Shown in pieces: positions 368 through 64,000 of a stretch of DNA of 64,000 nucleotides (positions are counted from its first letter, which is position 1; each line of letters starts with the position of its first letter). Origin of the DNA: Octopus vulgaris (taxonomy: Eukaryota). The position numbers and the translations under genes are program-made. Location of the stretch: positions 44,826,001-44,890,000 of the forward strand of contig OX597819.1 in assembly GCA_951406725.2 (NCBI GenBank), in the 5' to 3' direction. The notes below the pieces were generated by a model. The model saw only the letters and a list, made by a program, of their open reading frames with translations. It searched no databases and was not told the origin of the DNA.

Positions 368-747
368 TATGTTTGACTTTTGCTTTATATTTGTACAAGT
401 TGGCTCCAAGTCTCACCCAGAGACCTCAAGAGACAACAGGTTGGAAGTTCATGTTGTTGTTATGCCTAGTGTGCCATATATTGGGGGGGGGAGTTTTTGG
501 TGTTGTACTAATGAATGTCTAAAAAAAATTTTTTTTTAATTTTTTTGTTTTAAAAACCGAAAATTATGTTTGTTTTAAACCTTGAGATTACATAGAAAGT
601 ATTTTGCGTAGGATATGAGCAGTTCCCATGAGCACTATCTTTTGAATTTCTGCCATTTTTGGGTTTCCTGGTATCTGAATTAGGTAGCTATCAGCCCCTT
701 TTGCTATCATTCCCAGGGCACCTATGACAACAGGTATTGTTTTAGTC

Positions 748-750
<3 letters not shown>
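368..750 (-). mobile_element. R4/Dong-like LINE 3' end (5'-truncated)
   Basis: Minus strand encodes QIPGNPKMAEIQKIVLMGTAHILRKILSM*, the typical RLE C-terminus; the 3' UTR is shared with copies at about 840 and 2745. Confidence 0.8.
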
Positions 751-812
<62 letters not shown>

Positions 813-839
813 TTATTATTATTATTATTATTATTATTA

Positions 840-2125
840 TGTTTGGCTTTTTTTGTATTTGTATAAGATGACTCCAAGTCTCACCCAGAGATGTCAAGAG
901 ACAACAAGTTAGAAGCTCGTGTTGGTGTTATGCCTAGGGTGTCATATATTTGGTGTTGTACATAGTAATGCTCTAGAGAATGCTTAAGAAAATATGAGAA
1001 AACTATGACATTGTTTTAAAATTTGAGATTAAATAGAAAGTATTTTACGTAGGATATGAGTAGTTCCCATGAGCAATATCTTTTGAATGTCTGCCATTTA
1101 GGGTTTTCATGGTATGTGAGATAGGCAGGAATCAGCCATTTTTGCTATCATTCCTAGGGCACCTATGACAACAAGTATTGTTTTGTCTTGAAGTTCTAAA
1201 TGTTTCCAATTTCTATTTAAAGATCTTTATACTTGCTCAGTTTGGGGTAGGTCTTGACAGATACATTTATGTCGATTGGCACAGTAATATCAACGGGGAG
1301 ACATGTCTTTGCCCAAAGTCTTTCAATATAATCTGTGGCCTATTCACATCTGTCTTTCTGTCAGTTTGAATGGTGAATTCCCAGAGGAGCGACATGTGAT
1401 CATTTTCAAGCACTGAGGGTGATTTGTGTTCCCACTAGTTTTTTTTTATAGGGCAGGTCCAGTTTTTTGCAAATTACCCAGTGAATATATTGTGCTGTTC
1501 TATTATGCCTGTTGAGATACTCTGTAGGCAGAAGAAGACTGTACATGGAGACAATATGATCAATGGTTTCATTTTGTTGTTGAGATAGACGACTTGTTGG
1601 GCTATTGCCGTTCTTTAATATGTTGGCCTGGTAGTCCCTTGTAGGTAGGCACTGATCTTCGGCTGCTTTGATAAACCCTTCTGCTTTTGATTTTAAGCCA
1701 GAAGAAACTAACCACTGATGGGTAAGGACTCTGTCAGCATCGGCACTATTAGCTATGTTTGGGTATTTGCTATTGAGAGGTTTTTCTTGCCATTTATCAG
1801 TAAGAATATCTAAAAGCAGTTTTAGCACGAGTTTTCATACGCTTAGCTTTTCCTGTGCTTGTTTCCAGAACGTCTAATTTTGGAATTTGTTGGATTTGGA
1901 ATTCAGTTAGATATTCCTTTGCCTGTTTTGCTACTGAGTATGATGCTTTCTTGTTTTCATATTTTGTGACAAGTTTTAGAATCCAGTCATCAGAGTTTTT
2001 CAGGTAGGTGTTTAGACCAATTGTGGCAATCTTCATTGTTAATTCCAGTTGTAAAAGTCCACAGCCACCCTCCTTTCATGGCTGGTAAAGTCGCTCTGTA
2101 ACTGCCTGAGGGTGGTGCATTCTAT
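840..2125 (-). mobile_element. R4/Dong-like LINE, degenerate 3' portion (zinc knuckle and RLE endonuclease)
   Basis: ORF 1406..1828 has EGFIKAAEDQCLPTRDY, ETIDHIVS (decayed CCHC) and RHNRTAQYIHW; downstream WEFTIQTDR..RPQII; frameshifts; (TAA)n at the 3' end. Confidence 0.85.
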
Positions 2126-17819: not shown

Positions 17820-18536
17820 AGATATGTTTCGACCAAAGATTGGTCCAAGCCATGTCTAACTTAATAGCACCACCTGATAGGATTATCTAATTCCTTTTTA
17901 AGTCAAGTTTTGTTTATGGTCCATTCATGTAGTGAGTTCTTGTTGAGTGAGTTGTATACAGGTGTGGGTGGCTTATCGGTATTTCTTGAAGAAATCTTTC
18001 CAGACTCAGTTTAAAGGTGATGGGATCCTTTTCCTCTCTAATCAGTTTTAGGACAATATTAAACAGGGCAGGGCCTGTTCAGGAAAAGAAATTATGTTGC
18101 AGTGTACCTATATGCTGTCATCTTGAAATGGGCAGGGCAACTATAGCCTGTCGTCCCAGTCTTGGATGAACCTTGAAACTAATGTTCAGGTTATTTGGGC
18201 AATGCTGGTGGTATATTCTCCACATCGTACAAATGATGTACCGCTCGCAGCGGCGCTGGATGCAGTAGAGTTTCAAGGCTTTAAGGCGGTCCCAGTATTC
18301 GAGATCAGTCATGCCTTCAATTCGTTTAGTGAGTGTCCTCTGGGGTGATTCAATCCTCGAGATATTTTGTTTTGTATGCGGAGACCACAAGGGGCAGCAG
18401 TATTCGAAGTGTGGCCGTACAAAGGAGGAGAAAAGTGGAGTGGAATGATGACACCTTATTCTCTGGACCGGAAGGTTCTTAAGACCCAGGAGCTCATTCT
18501 ACGAGCTATATCGACCTTATTGTAGATGTAGGCACT

Positions 18537-24566: not shown

Positions 24567-24879
24567 GGCGGGGAGGAATTTAATCAATCGAGAACATCGA
24601 TGATCACCTGCTAATAATACTTTACAAAGAGAAAGGTGGCAAATCAAAAATAGATTTTTTTTTCATATTTGGGAAGGAAGGCGGCTTCTTACAAGTATCT
24701 CAATTTAAGAGAAGAATTTACAAAATTGAAATCTGTAATACGACAGGGTTGTGTTACTGCCTGATCGTTCGCAGGCACGGTACCAACTCCAAAATATTTG
24801 TCGGTTGTGGCGTTGACAATGAGTGAGGAGTACTTCGTGTAATAATAATTCTTTCTATCATGGGTACAAAGAAGACTGC

Positions 24880-26148
24880 GAACTAGCAGAATGGTTAGCT
24901 CGCAGGATGAAATGCTTAGTGGCATTTCAACGGTCTTTACATTCTGAGTTCAAATCCCATTGAGGACGACTTTGCCTGTCATCCTTTCGGGGACGATAAT
25001 TAAGTACCAGTTGAGTACTGGCGTCGATGTAATCGACTCGCCCTTCATCCAAAGTTGCAGGCTTTGTGCCTATATTAGAAAGGAGTATAGGAAAAAGGAC
25101 TGAAACTGAGTACGGGTGCTAGTCGGTATCACCGGCTCCAGTGTTCAACTGGTACTTATTTTATCGACTCCTATTGGATGAAAGGCTAAGACGATCTCAG
25201 TGGAATTTGAACTGAAGATCTGGAAGTGCTGCGGCAAAAAAATTTTGTTCGGCACTGTAACGATTCTACCAGTTCGACACTCTAAAAGTTTCGCAATAAT
25301 AATTCTTTCTTCTAAAGGATCAAGGTCTGAATTTATTAATTTTTTTTGGGTGGGGGGGCGTGGATTTGTTTAGTTTATTACAGAGATCCCAGTCCGGAAC
25401 TGTTAATTATTTTACCGACCAAAGCGGCGAGCTGGCAGAAACGTTAGCACGCCGGGCGAAATGCGTAGCCGTATTTCGTCTACCGTTACGTTCTGAGTTC
25501 AAATTCTGCCAAGGTCGACTTTGCCTTTCATCCTTTCGGGGTCGATTAAATAAGTACCAGTTACGCACTGTGGTCGATATAATCGAATTAATCCGTTTGT
25601 CTCTCCTTGTTTGTCGTCTCTCTGTTTAGCCCCTTGTGGGTAGTAAAGAAATAGGTATTTCGTCTGCCGCAATGTTCTGAGTTCAAATTCCGCCGAAGTC
25701 GGCTTTTTCTTTCATATTTTCGGGGTCGACTAAATAAGTACCAGTTACGCACTGGGGTCGATGCAAAACTTTTCAAGGCTTTGTGCCGAGAATAGAAAGC
25801 ATTGTTTTATCGACCTATGCAAAACAAAGTCGACCTCGGTGGATTTGAAACCCAGAATGGAAAACCGTAAGATATGAGGCTAAGCATTTTGTCAGATGTG
25901 CTAACGATTCAGCCAGCTCGCCACCTTATTAGTATTAAATTTTGACACAAGGCCAAAGTTCTAGATGGGGATGCGGTTAGTCGGTTACATCGAACCCAAT
26001 ACTTGACTGCTTTTTTCTTTTTATTTTATCGACCCGAAAAGATGAAAGGCAAACTCGACCTCGGTGACATTTGAACTCGGAACATAAATAGCCAGAAAGA
26101 AAATGCCGCTAAGCATTTTGTCCGACGCACTAACGACACTGCCAGCTC
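24880..26148. mobile_element. Cluster of SINE family B copies in both orientations
   Basis: Plus copies at about 24880-25085 and 25421-25800 (internally duplicated); minus copies at about 25135-25280, 25800-25925 and 25945-26148. Confidence 0.8.
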
Positions 26149-26719
26149 ATAATGATATAATCATAATGAAATGTGATCAGTGACATTCATTATGTTATAG
26201 AATGATGATGTCAGCGAGGCGAGTGAGTCTGATGTTTGAGTAAATGAATGAACCATATGAATGAGTGAGTTGTGTGTGTAGAATACTGTATAAAATAATG
26301 ATTGATGTTATTCTATACAGCAGCCTGCTGTAGCCATTGAAATATGCTTCGTACATTTGGAAGAAGATGGTACTTGCTCAAGCTGCTGTTATATCAGATA
26401 CTCTTTGATCTATTCAACGGTGTTCCTCTTGCTTTTTAATGTTCGCCTAGTCGTCTTCATATTCTTACTGTCTTTTTTTCTCTCTCGTTTTCCTCGTTTT
26501 TTTTTCGTCTTTTTTTTTAATGCTTTCAATATAGTAATTGTTGCCTTTTATTTTCGTTGTTTTGTTGTTGTTGATGTTTCTCTATTTATTTATTTATTTA
26601 TTTATTGCTGGTGCCTCATCTCTTTTGTTGTTGTTCTTGTTATTACTGTCGTAGTTGCTATTTTTATTTTTATTTTATATTTCTAATACCATTGATGTAA
26701 CTTTTTTCAGTATTTCTTT

Positions 26720-38342: not shown

Positions 38343-38838
38343 AAAGACCATACCGTACGAACGCCCCTATATTTTTTTATATATAGAAAATATAAAAATG
38401 GGAGAAGTACGCAAAACATTCAGACAGTTAGGTGATACAAAAATGGGACAACAAAACATCCAGACAGATGATACATAGAAAACAAGGACTGGTCATTCGG
38501 AGTTTTCTTTCGTTAGTCGAGTTTCAGATTATCTTTACAATTTTAGCTGATTATACCCGAGATTGCTCCAATCTGGCCAGCCCCAAGGAAAGACTAAGCT
38601 AAGAGCACTAGATTCATTGAAAGAAAGTAGCGAATGTATACGAAAACAAGGACAGAAAAAACGGAGAAATGGTATGTGCATATATTATGAATATAGGAGG
38701 CTTGCTGCAGAACAACAACAACTGTAAAATTGAGCGCCTCAAGAATCTTTCGGCATGTAATCAAGCTATAAGCATTGCACTTAAAAAGAAAGCACATCTG
38801 CAGACATAAGTGATGCGGATATATATATATACATATAT

Positions 38839-39260
38839 ATGCCAATATATGCTATCTTCCGTACAGACAGAAGTAAAAGAAGTCACAGAGGAGTTGCAAT
38901 ATACATCTGCGAAGATTTCACACTAACCCTGTTATCGAACACGAACTCGTTGTGTGACACACTCATAGTACATCTAAAGTCATTTGATATAATGATATAC
39001 CCACTATATTGCCCACTTGATGCCTCAAATCATAATGGAAAATTTGAGGAAAGCCTCAGTGTGATAAAAGAAGTACTAACGCAATTGGATGAATGCACTA
39101 CTATTTTCCTGATATGTGACTTCGACTTCTCCAACATCAGGTGTCTTGAGGGCAATATAACCCCAGGAATGACTCACAAGGGGTGAAATCAAGCAGAATC
39201 TTCACTTGATCTTACGAAAATGCTATTCATAGAGCCGCAAAGGTGGCACTCAAATCCTAT
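38839..39260 (+). mobile_element. LINE APE endonuclease fragment (CR1-group-like)
   Basis: YAIFRTDRSKRSHRGVAIYI and IFLICDFDF resemble the R.DR..GGGVAIY and GDFN motifs of the apurinic-like endonuclease. Confidence 0.75.
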
Positions 39261-46742: not shown

Positions 46743-46811
46743 AGAGAGTTAAATGATATTCAGAGTTTCTCTATAAAAAAAACACCTAGTAACGCTAAAA
46801 TTATTTGAGCT

Positions 46812-47385
46812 AAAGGCGGCGAGCTGGCGGAAACGTTAGCACGCCGGGCAAAATCGTAGCCGTATTTCGCCGGCCGCTACGTTCTGAGTTTAAATTCCGC
46901 CGAGGTCGACTTTGCCTTTCATCCTTTCGTGGTCGATTAAATAAGTACCAGTTACACAATCGACTTAATCCGTTTGTCTGTCCTTGTTTGTCCTCTCTGT
47001 GTTGAGACCCTTGTGGGTAGTAAAAAGATAGGTATTTCGTTTCTTTTTATGTTCTGAGTTCAAATTTTGCCGAGCTCGATTTTGCCTCTCATCCTTTCGG
47101 GGTTGATTAAATAAGTACCAGTTACGCACTGGTGTCAATATAATCTTCTTAATCCGTTTGTCCGTTTGTCTGTCCTTGTTTGTTTTCTCTGTGTTTAGCC
47201 TCTTGTGGGTAGTAAAGAAATAGGTATTTCGTCTGCCGCTACGTTCTGAGTTCAAATTCCCCCGCGGTCGACTTTGCCTTTCATCCTTTCGGGGTCGATA
47301 AATTAAGCACCAGTTGCGTACTGGGGTCGATCTAATCGACTAGGCCCCTTCCCGAAAAATTTCGGGCCTTGTGCCTACTGTAGAA
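46812..47385 (+). mobile_element. SINE family B with tandemly repeated body
   Basis: Head ggcggcgagctggcggaaacgttagcac followed by three copies of gttctgagtt.aaatt..catcctttcg..taccagtt. Confidence 0.85.
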
Positions 47386-48137
47386 AAAAAAATTATTTGA
47401 GCTTACACACCGAAACCTTTTACCGAAGACCAATTCGCGGGTATTAGAGGAAGTCTAATGAGTAGATGTAAATAAAGAGAAAGCAAATAATGAAGATTTT
47501 CAGACGATGAATATTCGAGTATAAATATAGTTAGATATTTATATTTCAGCAGAGTAAGCTTACACAAGTGCACAAAGATGCAGAATATCAAAGTTATGGT
47601 GTTATAAGTCCGACATCGGTTTATGGGGGCTCGGAGTTACGCCATAATGTTGGCAAGTAGAGTTCACAAATATATACATGTGGTAATGGAAGCAAATAAA
47701 CATTGGACAGATCCAACCGCCCTCTTCAGGCTGGAGTGATATATCGGTTTCATTTCTCTTCCCTGAAGATGGAGGCCAGATTCTTTTTGCGTCATCATCA
47801 ATCTCTCTCTCTCTCTGTATACACTCACATATATGTATGTATATATACATACCAAATACATACATACATACATACACACACGAACATATACATATCATAT
47901 GTGTGTATAAGAGTTTTACACTGAGGGAAAACCACTTACTGGTTTTCCATTACGCTAGAAATGGGAGTTAAGTCCCAAACTACGAAAAAGCTTAGTGGCT
48001 TTCCTTCAGTGTATAACTTTTATACATACGTCCAAATGCGGTCTACGGACGTTTTTATTCACGCTGGCCACCGGTAAAAAATTTATATTCAATTTTAATC
48101 CTATATTTAAAATATATATATACATTTGTATATAAAT

Positions 48138-48797: not shown

Positions 48798-49020
48798 TAA
48801 CTTTATTTAAAGCAGCAGAAAATTCAACAAAACCTGTTACTCTGAGTTTCCCGTAGCCGTTCATCGGACAGTTTTTGCTAGAATCTAGCAACGGGAAACT
48901 CAGAGTAACAGGTTTTGTTGAATTTTCTGCTGCTTTAAATAAAGCATATTACTCTACCACTGGTATTTGAGTACTCTTTCTTCCACCTTGTTTCACATTT
49001 ATGTGTTTACTCCGGCATAT
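48795..49020. mobile_element. Penelope-type terminal repeat with perfect 54-bp inverted duplication
   Basis: 48801-48854 is the exact reverse complement of 48891-48944; hammerhead-like variant on the minus strand. Confidence 0.65.
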
Positions 49021-49130
49021 ATAACTTAAGGAAGATCAGGAGAACGGAGATTTGCACATCCAAGTTGTATTATAGTGTTATTTACATCGTTCTTCACCTA
49101 GACCAGTGAAGAACGGTGTGAATAAAAGTA

Positions 49131-49335
49131 TATATTTCTTTATTGCCCACAAGGACAGACAAAGGGATTAAGTCGATTACATCGTCCCCAGTGCGTAACT
49201 GGTACTTAATTTATCGACACCGAAAGGATGAAAAGCAAAGTCGACCTCGGCGGAATTTGAACTCAGAACGTAACGGCAGACGAAATACGGCTACGCATTT
49301 CGCCCGGCGTGCTAACGTTTCTGCCAGCTCGCCGC
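49131..49335 (-). mobile_element. SINE family B (3' part of a tRNA-SINE chimera)
   Basis: Reverse complement of the family B head and body; closely similar to 25421 and 46812. Confidence 0.85.
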
Positions 49336-49349
49336 TGTAACAAATGCCG

Positions 49350-49412
49350 TTCCCATGCCGGGAATCGAACCCGGGCCGCCTGGGTGAAAGCCAGGAATCC
49401 TAACCACTAGAC
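49350..49412 (-). pseudogene. tRNA-Glu(TTC) pseudogene, 5'-truncated
   Basis: Minus strand GTCTAGTGGTTAGGATTCCTGGCTTTCACCCAGGCGGCCCGGGTTCGATTCCCGGCATGGGAA has intact D, anticodon (TTC) and T arms; the upstream CTACTTT cannot pair with CATGGGA, so the acceptor stem is absent. Confidence 0.9.
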
Positions 49413-49429
49413 TAAAAGTAGATTCCAAC

Positions 49430-49740
49430 TTGTTGTTGTTCGTTCTTTCTCGAGCCACGCCTGGCTCACAGCGCCGGTTTCCTGGTTTCCTTGGCGTATA
49501 GGTTCCCCACCTGTACGGGACGCCGGTCCGTCGCAGGTGAGCTGCTAGATGCAGGAGGAAAGAGTGAGAGAATGTTGTGGCGAAAGAGTCAGCAGAATTT
49601 CGCCATTACCTTCTGCCGGAGCCGCGTGGAGCTTAGGTGTTTCGTTCATAATCACACACATCGCCCGGTCTGAGATTCGAACATGCGATCCCTCGACCGC
49701 GAGTCTGCTGCTGTAAGCACTAGACCATGTGCTTCCACAT
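49430..49740 (-). mobile_element. tRNA-derived SINE (family C) with (AAC)n tail
   Basis: Head tggtctagtg..gttcgaatc (A and B boxes) on the minus strand; target duplication ATTCCAAC at 49422-49429 and 49741-49748. Confidence 0.85.
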
Positions 49741-50999
49741 ATTCCAACATGGATCTGCAAATCTCCGTTCTCCTGAACTTCCTTAATTTTATTATTTTCT
49801 CTACGGACACTATGCAGTCTTTATTAGGACATTCGGATTTACCAAGTTAGGATTAACCGAGTATAATAAATTTTATCTAGCTTGAGCTTCATCAACACTC
49901 ACCGTGGCTAGTCAGCATTGGGAACCGATAAGAGCTAAAATGGCAACTGCCAGAATCATATATCCCTCGAAATAATTTTTGAAAATATATATAAATATAT
50001 ATGAAGAGAAGAAGAAGAAGAGAGAGAGAGAGAGAGAGAGAGTCATTAGTGAGGAATTAACAACGCCAATAAAATAATTTGTAAACTCTCTGTTAGTGCA
50101 CCAGTCAACCAATTGTTTAGATCAATAAAGAACCCCGCGTATTCTTGTGGTGCTGCTCGAGGTTATAGTTTATTACAAGTTCCATATTGCCAACCCGTGG
50201 TTGTGTTCCAGTCGTACTGGATTTTACACAGAGGGATATATACAAAAAAATTTATGAATAATGGTCATTACATTCTTTTCTTAATTGTAGTAAATTTGAC
50301 TTACAGCTGTTTCCAGTAGTCATTATAGGTTCGTTATTAACATGTTTTATCAATAGGGCCATTGATCGATTGAAAAAAATTGAACGACTTATAAAGTTAA
50401 TGCTATTTTCGTCAAAGACATTCCTGGTTATAACAAAGCAGAACACTGAAGGAATGGTATAGGTACGGGTTGCTAGAGGGGAGAAACTAAGGATCAGTAT
50501 GAAATAAGTCGAAGAGAGATAAGTAGGAAAGGGGGAAGAGAAATGTTGATTTAGAAGCGAAGGACTAAAGTGAAGGGAAGGAAAGCAAGGAAGAATAGAA
50601 AGAATAGAAAGAATAGAAAGAATAGAGAAGAGGAGGCATTCGATAGAAAAAGAGACGGAGGACGGCCGAAATTAAGGAAAGGGCAGTCATGAAAAGATTA
50701 ATGCTTGTAGTTAGGGCATCATACACGAAAATATTTGCATTGTTTTCGAATCCGATACTCTCAAATATTGTGTTGAAATTTGATATGGGCCACTTACATA
50801 CATGGTCAACTTAAAGCTTTAATATTTGGTCATATGTACTGTCACGTAGAATGGGTGAATGGTATTAGGAAATGAATCAGAGATCAGCAGTAACTATATG
50901 ATGATGCAAACGTTGAGCAAGCTTTAGTGAGCTTGACTATAAGATAGAGATAGAAATAGAAATGTGAATTTGAAATAAAATATAAATAAGCGGAAAGTG

Positions 51000-61049: not shown

Positions 61050-62460
61050 TTTATTATGGTGTCTTAACAAAATTAGCTCTTTCATACATAGTGTACTCAT
61101 CAGATTTCAAATGTGTTTAACTGACTACTGAGTTCTTAACAACTTTAGTACCTCTTAGAACGTTCCAACCAGCATAATTTTTAGAATACCTTTTTGACCA
61201 ATCCGCATGCTCTTAAGCATCACGGTTGGCCAGGCTTACCGATATTCTGCCATTTGCTTATATTTATTAACTGGTTGTTATATAATTGTTGTTATTGCCA
61301 TTCAGAACAGGTTTGAACATTTTAATAAGCCATTTTTCTTTTATCTTACTTCCAACCTCACTTGTGTCATGTGGTTAGTAAAAAGGAAAAATTAGAAACA
61401 TTTTCTGACCACGTGCCTCAATATGTTCACTCAATGGAATTTGGCGAACATGGGTGTTCCGGATTTGTTGCCTGCGAACTTGTGAGAGTTCCGATAATGC
61501 ATTCCCTGTCTCACCTATATATAATTCTTCACAATTCAGACATTTAATGCAGTAGATTAAATTTCTGCTTTTCCAGTTCATATCTGCATTTGCGAAATTC
61601 TGTTCATTTTTGGCTCTAATGGATCTACCCGTATGCCTGTATTGACACATTCCACATCTGTTATCATTACACTTGGACACTGTGAATATGTTATCCCATT
61701 TGTTCATGTTGAATTTTGCCTTTGTTAATAGTTTCTTTAGGTTATGTGATTGCCTTTTGCTTAAAATAAGTGTTTGATTAGTTATTATGTTTTTTTTAAT
61801 TTTTCACTTTGTTTTATGAATGGCAAATTTGTTTTGATGAGGTTAAAAATGTTTTGGCGATGGATTGTGTGTTACTAGAAATTGTATCGTGTTCCTTTGA
61901 TGGATTCGTCTTTTTCGTGTTGCTCTAAGTTGTTCTATATGTATCTCTCTTGCTCTAAGTTGTTCTATATGTATCTCTCTTGCTCGTAGTATGGTATTTT
62001 GCTTGAGCAGAAATACTTTGAGTTCTATAAGTCGTGTTTCTGGAATTTGGATCATCGAAAATAGCGCAAATTTTCCTGGCTAGACAGTACGGGACGTTGC
62101 AGTTTGTGTGTGTTGGGTGACATGGTTTGAAATTTGGATACTGTTGTGTTTCTGTGCTTTTGTAATAAATGTCAGTTGTGATTGCGGTGTTGTTTTTAAT
62201 TACCATTATGTGAAGAAATCGTGATTGTGCGTTGCTTATTTCTCCTGTGAATTATCGGGGAGGGTGCTGAATTCTTCCAGATTTTTAGGGATTTCGTCCA
62301 CATTAGGAAACAATCATCTTTTCCATGTGTCCTCTATATGTCTTTTAAAGGTTATGACTTAGTTCTTTTCAATTTTTTAATATAGGTTTTGTTCTAAGTA
62401 TTCTAATACTGAGTTCACGAAAACTGGAGCAAATCGTGTCCCCATAGCTGTGCCTCGAAT
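61050..62460 (-). mobile_element. Penelope-like retroelement (RT and GIY-YIG endonuclease), degenerate
   Basis: RGTAMGTRFAP, TDIYYKSTETQQY..HPTH..NVPYCLARKI, CNDNRCGMC and NLIYCIKCLNCEELYIGETG occur in the correct order with stops and frameshifts; 30-bp tandem duplication at 61921-61980. Confidence 0.9.
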
Positions 62461-63649: not shown

Positions 63650-64000
63650 AAGGCGGTGAGTTGGCAGAAGCGTTAGCATACCGGGTAAAATGCTTAGCAG
63701 TCTTTCGTCTGCCGCTGCGCTCTGAGTTCAAATTCCGCCGAGGTTGTTTTACCTTTCATCCTTTCGGGGTCGATTAAATAAGTAGTAGTTACGCATTGGA
63801 GTCGATATAATCGATTTAATCCGTTTGTCTGACCTTGTTTGTCCCCTCTGTGTGTAGCCCCTTGTTGGCAGTAAAGAAATACGAAACGTTAGCACGCCGG
63901 GCGAAATTCTTAGCAGTATTTCGTCTGTCATTACGTTATGAGTTGAAATTCCGCCTAAGTCGACTTTGCCTTTCATCCTTTTGAGGTCAATAAATTAATT
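63650..64000 (+). mobile_element. SINE family B tandem copies
   Basis: ggcggtgagttggcagaagcgttagc head; a second copy starts near 63882. Confidence 0.8.

Follow-up and report, generated by a model that had tools for sequence, protein, structure and literature searches.

A likely single-event retrocopy of precursor tRNA-Glu and a SINE in Octopus vulgaris

Described chimeras and composite SINEs

Chimeras of small RNAs and retroelements are a known class, which the locus described here extends, by a single dead copy, to a precursor tRNA (pre-tRNA) in an invertebrate. In the U6/L1, U6/L2, U6/RTE and U6/Alu chimeras, as in the octopus locus, a small RNA made by Pol III, on the 5' side and in sense orientation, is followed by a retroelement 3' end, within one duplication and with a U-rich junction (PMC4476161; PMC13174262). 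The L1, L2 and RTE clades all gave rise to U6 chimeras, and the same work cites retropseudogenes of pre-tRNAs (PMC4476161). In contrast to the U6 cases, the 5' partner here is a 5'-truncated pre-tRNA with its trailer, and in place of a truncated LINE a full-length non-mammalian SINE forms the 3' part (PMC4476161; PMC13174262). Template jumps of R2 to tRNA in Drosophila likewise leave an almost complete sense tRNA immediately 5' of a retroelement whose own 5' end is intact; however, the documented case carries a CCA, by which the mature tRNA was recognised, while the octopus locus has a trailer, no CCA and a SINE as the element (PMC3414825). Human tRNA/LINE-1 chimeras also join a tRNA and a retroelement in one duplication, but those 21 loci mostly contain antisense tRNA halves attributed to twin priming, whereas the tRNA analysed here is in sense orientation and nearly whole (PMC13174262).

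The other relevant systems are the complex SINEs (tRNA-7SL dimers, Twin), in which two tandem Pol III modules are mobilised as a unit as well. These have at least 100 copies, in contrast to one known copy here, with a tRNA part that looks unmodified and with an internal T4 (PMC3531059; PMC13023118). SINE dimers with tRNA heads are also known (PMC13023118). For a complex SINE family SINEBase asks for at least 100 interspersed copies, and with one copy in 64 kb the cassette is not classed as such (PMC3531059). Having a tRNA-related head, Pol III boxes and a length below 1 kb, it does have the size and head used by SINEBase, and it shows the structural features of the U6/LINE-type chimeric retrocopies. 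It is also what the founder of a complex SINE family could look like.

Our literature search, which was thin on subscription papers, found no report, from cephalopods or any other group, of a chimera of a sense pre-tRNA with trailer and a SINE. No such chimera is mentioned in the first third of the Octopus vulgaris repeat annotation (PMC13282606) or in the available part of PMC9115989. The SINE itself, or a tRNA/SINE composite, may already be included in the SINEBase supplements or in the repeat library of PMC13282606. Gain and exchange of Pol III heads by SINEs have usually been deduced from old families, with template switching as the usual account of head exchange (PMC4824008; PMC4494074; PMC4758252). 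With a junction that is young and clean and that joins an unprocessed tRNA to a complete SINE, read-through and template jumping can be tested against each other directly.

Structure of the cassette and of its host hairpin

The window, i.e., the whole 64-kb stretch of DNA that was analysed, consists of microsatellite-rich animal DNA with about 35% GC. The features around the cassette are as follows.

49413..49420, no strand: target site duplication, the copy that lies upstream when the cassette is read in sense; tRNA positions 8-9 may coincide with its final two bases
49350..49412, minus strand: copy of tRNA-Glu(TTC), positions 10-73, based on the match to Rfam RF00005 (43.5 bits), the sequence and the B box; ARAGORN negative
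49336..49349, minus strand: spacer, read as a putative pre-tRNA 3' trailer, 11 nt ending in T3GT2 plus 0-3 nt
49131..49335, minus strand: full-length SINE monomer ("SINE-B") that has a head of its own, lacks 27 nt near the 3' end and contains T4 at 49231-49234
49123..49130, no strand: target site duplication, downstream copy, exact 8-mer
49026..49786, no strand: TTAA-flanked host hairpin, MITE-like by structure (inverted repeat; arm register test)
49430..49740, minus strand: another SINE-like insertion, unrelated to the first, with an (AAC)n end and an 8-bp duplication of its own, ATTCCAAC, at 49422 and 49741

Read on the minus strand, the 282-bp cassette comprises tRNA-like sequence (49412-49350), the spacer (49349-49336) and the SINE (49335-49131) between two identical 8-mers. 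Both parts have the same orientation, and the 3' end of the SINE abuts the duplication. The sequence-only reading had the cassette bracketed by one 8-mer, and the sequence search bore this out: TAAAAGTA is an exact direct repeat at 49123-49130 and 49413-49420, and two of its four plus-strand occurrences in the 64-kb window are those at the cassette ends. For random intervals of 282 nt, an 8-mer direct repeat within at most 3 nt of both ends was found in 304 of 20000 draws, and with microsatellites left aside in 56 of 14149. The inner junction between tRNA part and SINE has no target site duplication, and a single one encloses both. The analysis confirmed that the cassette is real and well formed, with a minus-strand tRNA-Glu(TTC), a trailer and a full-length SINE inside one 8-bp duplication. 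Its folding was unremarkable (z = -1.83; 9 of 200 shuffles equally good), indicating no special structure.

The left arm of the host hairpin spans 49026-49097, and the right arm is split into 49106-49130, 49421-49429 and 49749-49786. After removal of the cassette and of the neighbouring SINE, each together with one duplication copy, 62 of 72 arm positions paired without a gap. Shifting the first junction by 1-3 nt reduced the matches to 30/69, 31/70, 33/71, 36/72, 29/72 and 34/72. The net insertion length is fixed by this register, with arm symmetry serving as a surrogate for the empty allele. It is unlikely that the hairpin contained the tRNA or two of the 8-mers beforehand, a case that would have spoken against the initial interpretation, since only removal of the cassette together with one 8-mer brings the arms into register. 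The 64-kb window showed no further copy of the host hairpin. Freed of its insertions the element measures about 150 bp, with arms that are 86% alike. We take the TTAA flanks to suggest a piggyBac-type derivative. The second SINE-like insertion (49422-49748 in the window) lies 9 bp from the cassette on the same strand and has no further copy in the window; a 3' transduction by this neighbour was rejected, as each insertion has its own duplication. A young hairpin at 48801-48944, 80 bp from the host hairpin, has 57-nt arms that are 98% complementary and a 30-nt loop.

A single duplication that encloses both parts, with none between them, the 5' truncation and the intact SINE 3' end point to a single target-primed event; these are the hallmarks of non-LTR retrotransposition. 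The earlier proposal that tRNA part and SINE were inserted as one unit is supported by the one duplication and by the restored hairpin register. Because the cassette lies in one 8-bp duplication, and because its removal restores the symmetry of the hairpin, a single retrotransposition event that used an unprocessed pre-tRNA as template is considered likely, and we hold this part with high confidence.

The Rfam tRNA match covers 49358-49414 on the minus strand and model positions 8-63 of 71; with 43.5 bits (gathering score 29) it is the only match at gathering score in the 64-kb window, and no non-standard pair was marked. D, anticodon and T arms are intact, and the 5' acceptor strand is absent. 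ARAGORN detected 0 tRNA genes at the locus because of this missing strand, and the complete cloverleaf with acceptor stem expected of a functional tRNA gene is lacking. The anticodon is TTC, from which the Glu identity was read. A and B boxes are present in the tRNA part, the A box being completed by the duplication. No second copy of the tRNA part was found in the 64-kb window. A scan of metagenomes for an exact junction motif gave 0 matches, which says little about an animal genome; among 24 public sequencing runs listed for 49290-49480, 0 contained half of the 17 words sampled (best share 0.41), and these shares speak neither for nor against other copies. The sequence-only reading had described a nearly intact tRNA-Glu(TTC) lacking about 9 nt at its 5' end. 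Its identity and near completeness stood, but the missing part has to be given as 7-9 nt, since the duplication may supply tRNA positions 8-9 with its last two bases.

The tRNA part closes at 49350 with the 3' acceptor strand and the discriminator, without a CCA behind them. Here, too, the first description, a 14-nt spacer without CCA, was right about the CCA, while the length had to be widened: the heads of four sister SINEs start with AAGGCGG or AAAGCGG, and therefore the foreign, non-SINE spacer measures 11-14 nt. Its last 0-3 nt are either untemplated or part of the SINE head. T3GT2 closes the spacer, and the SINE head begins 0-3 nt after it. A T4, T3VT2 or T2VT3 motif ending 0-3 nt before the head was observed here and at none of six other heads, with 4.5-5.0% of the window positions as background; this test was devised after the motif had been seen and yields only about 1 in 20. 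We infer that the spacer is a pre-tRNA 3' trailer. The trailer together with the missing CCA indicates a precursor tRNA, which supports the earlier view of an unprocessed tRNA as template.

The SINE-B family in the window

BLAST revealed 16 matches of the SINE-B family in the 64-kb window, the SINE of the cassette among them. The alignment of the segment 49131-49336 with its closest sister begins at the first base of the latter and shows 93% identity over 188 nt. A SINE-B copy behind the spacer had been noted before; this holds, and its 5' end is complete, with the correction that 27 nt near the 3' end are deleted between two CCTTGT repeats. Compared with the majority of eight other units the cassette SINE differs at 11 of 204 sites, an upper bound on divergence because this majority was drawn from a small set within the window. 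Dating the tRNA part against the SINE part was rejected, as the sequences are too short. SINE-B has its own A- and B-box-like head. A search of 24700-26300 with Rfam at E values up to 10 gave no tRNA signal for this head, only 5 weak matches far below gathering score.

We presume SINE-B to be octopus-like. By eye and without alignment, no likeness to the BivaMeta, BivaMD and BivaCORE-SINE1 rows was seen, and three short core motifs yielded 0, 0 and 1 matches in the bivalve SINE supplement (MetaSINE/CORE-SINE1 comparison).

The SINE-B family concatenates readily. Head-to-tail dimers and a trimer were observed at 46797-47403, 25423-25800 and 63651-63998, and six or more SINE-B pieces, oriented both ways, are packed into 1.3 kb at 24878-26148. 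Each of the four other units that share the long 3' end of the cassette SINE is joined directly to a 5'-truncated unit; three of the four junctions are found at one shared position and one elsewhere. The identical start of the downstream unit at three SINE-B junctions points to an amplified composite subfamily. Since the trimer (46814-47384) sits in one 15-bp duplication, composite SINE-B RNAs are mobilised, via read-through or jumping. Among nine elements searched for duplications, clear ones were obtained for three (8, 8 and 15 bp) and none for four; AT-rich 7-10-mers at the other two were set aside as chance duplications.

Formation of the chimera and state of the copy

For the junction between the two parts, we tentatively prefer a chimeric retrocopy formed by a template jump (or RNA ligation) onto the end of a terminated pre-tRNA, to which we give slightly less than an even chance. 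A reverse transcriptase, presumably LINE-encoded, would prime at a nick in the hairpin arm and copy the SINE RNA from its 3' to its 5' end. The enzyme would then move to an unprocessed pre-tRNA-Glu at its U-rich 3' end, by a putative end-to-end jump with 0-3 untemplated bases; ligation of the two RNAs beforehand would give an indistinguishable product. Copying would halt 7-9 nt before the tRNA 5' end, and the product would be joined to the target, possibly via 2-nt microhomology, leaving the 8-bp duplication and a dead-end pseudogene. Template jumping or RNA ligation are the standard explanations of such chimeras (PMC13174262; PMC3414825; PMC4476161), and for R2 in vivo jumps to tRNA and to U12 were reported (PMC3414825).

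The sequence-only reading had instead proposed that an unprocessed tRNA-Glu transcript read through into a SINE. This fusion is not established, as a jump or ligation fits about as well, with the junction where a terminated pre-tRNA would end. In the read-through case, to which we assign a substantial probability short of that for jump or ligation, a tRNA-Glu gene would have a SINE 11-14 bp behind it, at or just past a leaky T3GT2, and Pol III would transcribe both. The transcript would escape 3' processing, be reverse transcribed from the SINE tail and become 5'-truncated within the tRNA, as a one-off or in several copies. The evidence for a single event, i.e., duplication and register, is shared by this explanation. 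The T3GT2 motif cuts both ways: it marks the end of a terminated pre-tRNA, yet Pol III can read through it. T3VT2 motifs are sub-optimal, partial Pol III terminators in human assays, T3GT2 terminated very poorly in vivo in HeLa cells, and human tRNA genes produce long read-through trailers (PMC3141230), all of which favours read-through at the expense of a jump. Mobilisation of long composite SINE-B RNAs, as documented by the trimer in its 15-bp duplication, is also in line with read-through. Moreover, three of four multimer junctions share a position, pointing to an amplified composite master and not to repeated jumps, and small-RNA/Alu chimeras are very rare in human, which counts against a jump (PMC4476161). 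The complete 5' end of the SINE, however, matches the prediction for end-to-end jumping, and the direct joining of all four sister units with the long 3' end to 5'-truncated units is also taken to favour a jump. Read-through requires a SINE landing at most 3 nt from the terminator end, an RNA that escapes RNase Z and a source locus, of which, as of a second copy, there is none in the 64-kb window. In addition, a C-to-T change creates T4 inside the SINE at 49231-49234, at which Pol III would terminate ahead of the tail if the change does not postdate the insertion; T4 is found in 4 of 7 other SINE-B units, but in neither of the two least diverged sisters with full heads, an observation in favour of read-through. 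The small edge of jump or ligation over read-through is due to the position of the junction alone.

Two further explanations were weighed. A pre-tRNA retrocopy with its 8-bp duplication might have been inserted before a SINE entered the start of the downstream duplication, creating a 3-bp duplication TAC. TAC indeed immediately precedes the SINE head and also opens the downstream duplication, and the hairpin took another insertion only 9 bp away, so the site was accessible. However, 3-mer matches are common by chance (five such between the two flanks), the clear duplications in the window measure 8, 8 and 15 bp, and the SINE would have had to hit one exact base; we regard this sequence of events as very improbable. 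At the bottom of the scale, by a narrow step, stands an assembly chimera or a capture during DNA repair that mimics a retrocopy: an exact duplication at both ends and the exact hairpin register are hard to obtain by mis-assembly.

Whichever way it was formed, the copy is a poor master because of its internal T4 and the lack of an acceptor stem. An active SINE master has no Pol III terminator before its tail, whereas the cassette contains T4 at 49231-49234 and at 49414-49417, the latter directly upstream of the A box, and judged from these motifs a transcript of it would probably stop before the SINE tail. The cassette is unlikely to be the founder of a family. The alternative that it represents a young composite SINE with a fresh promoter found no support, given a single copy in the 64-kb window, the boxes that the SINE already has and the internal T4. 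We consider it unlikely that a tRNA-Glu gene which is live and whose T3GT2 is leaky drives a SINE behind it and seeds a young tRNA-Glu-headed composite family, of which the cassette would be a daughter. If source gene and daughters exist, a SINE family would be caught at birth, in a lineage whose main SINE grows by concatenation, and the origin of a dimeric SINE could be traced from the source gene to polymorphic copies.

A partner LINE was sought with BLAST, and the SINE 3' ends matched only SINE copies and no LINE piece in the window, a result that counts against the jump model. A decayed LINE 3' part at 740-2000 (minus strand) ends in (TAA)n, followed after the tract by another fragment of the same element, and by eye its 3' end at about 837-2000 is unlike the SINE 3' ends. 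This LINE resembles the R4/Dong clade. For its fragment 1409-1834 Atlas gave recognition below the usual range, with unnamed top clusters; the fourth cluster occurs most often in Mollusca, and 20% of its members carry zf-RVT, a weak result overall. Pfam assigned no family at cut-off to the 5 of 70 ORFs chosen as LINE-like. ORF fragments at 18118-18498, 38785-39186 and 61375-61803 resemble, by eye, remnants of a LINE reverse transcriptase tail, an endonuclease and a Penelope GIY-YIG domain.
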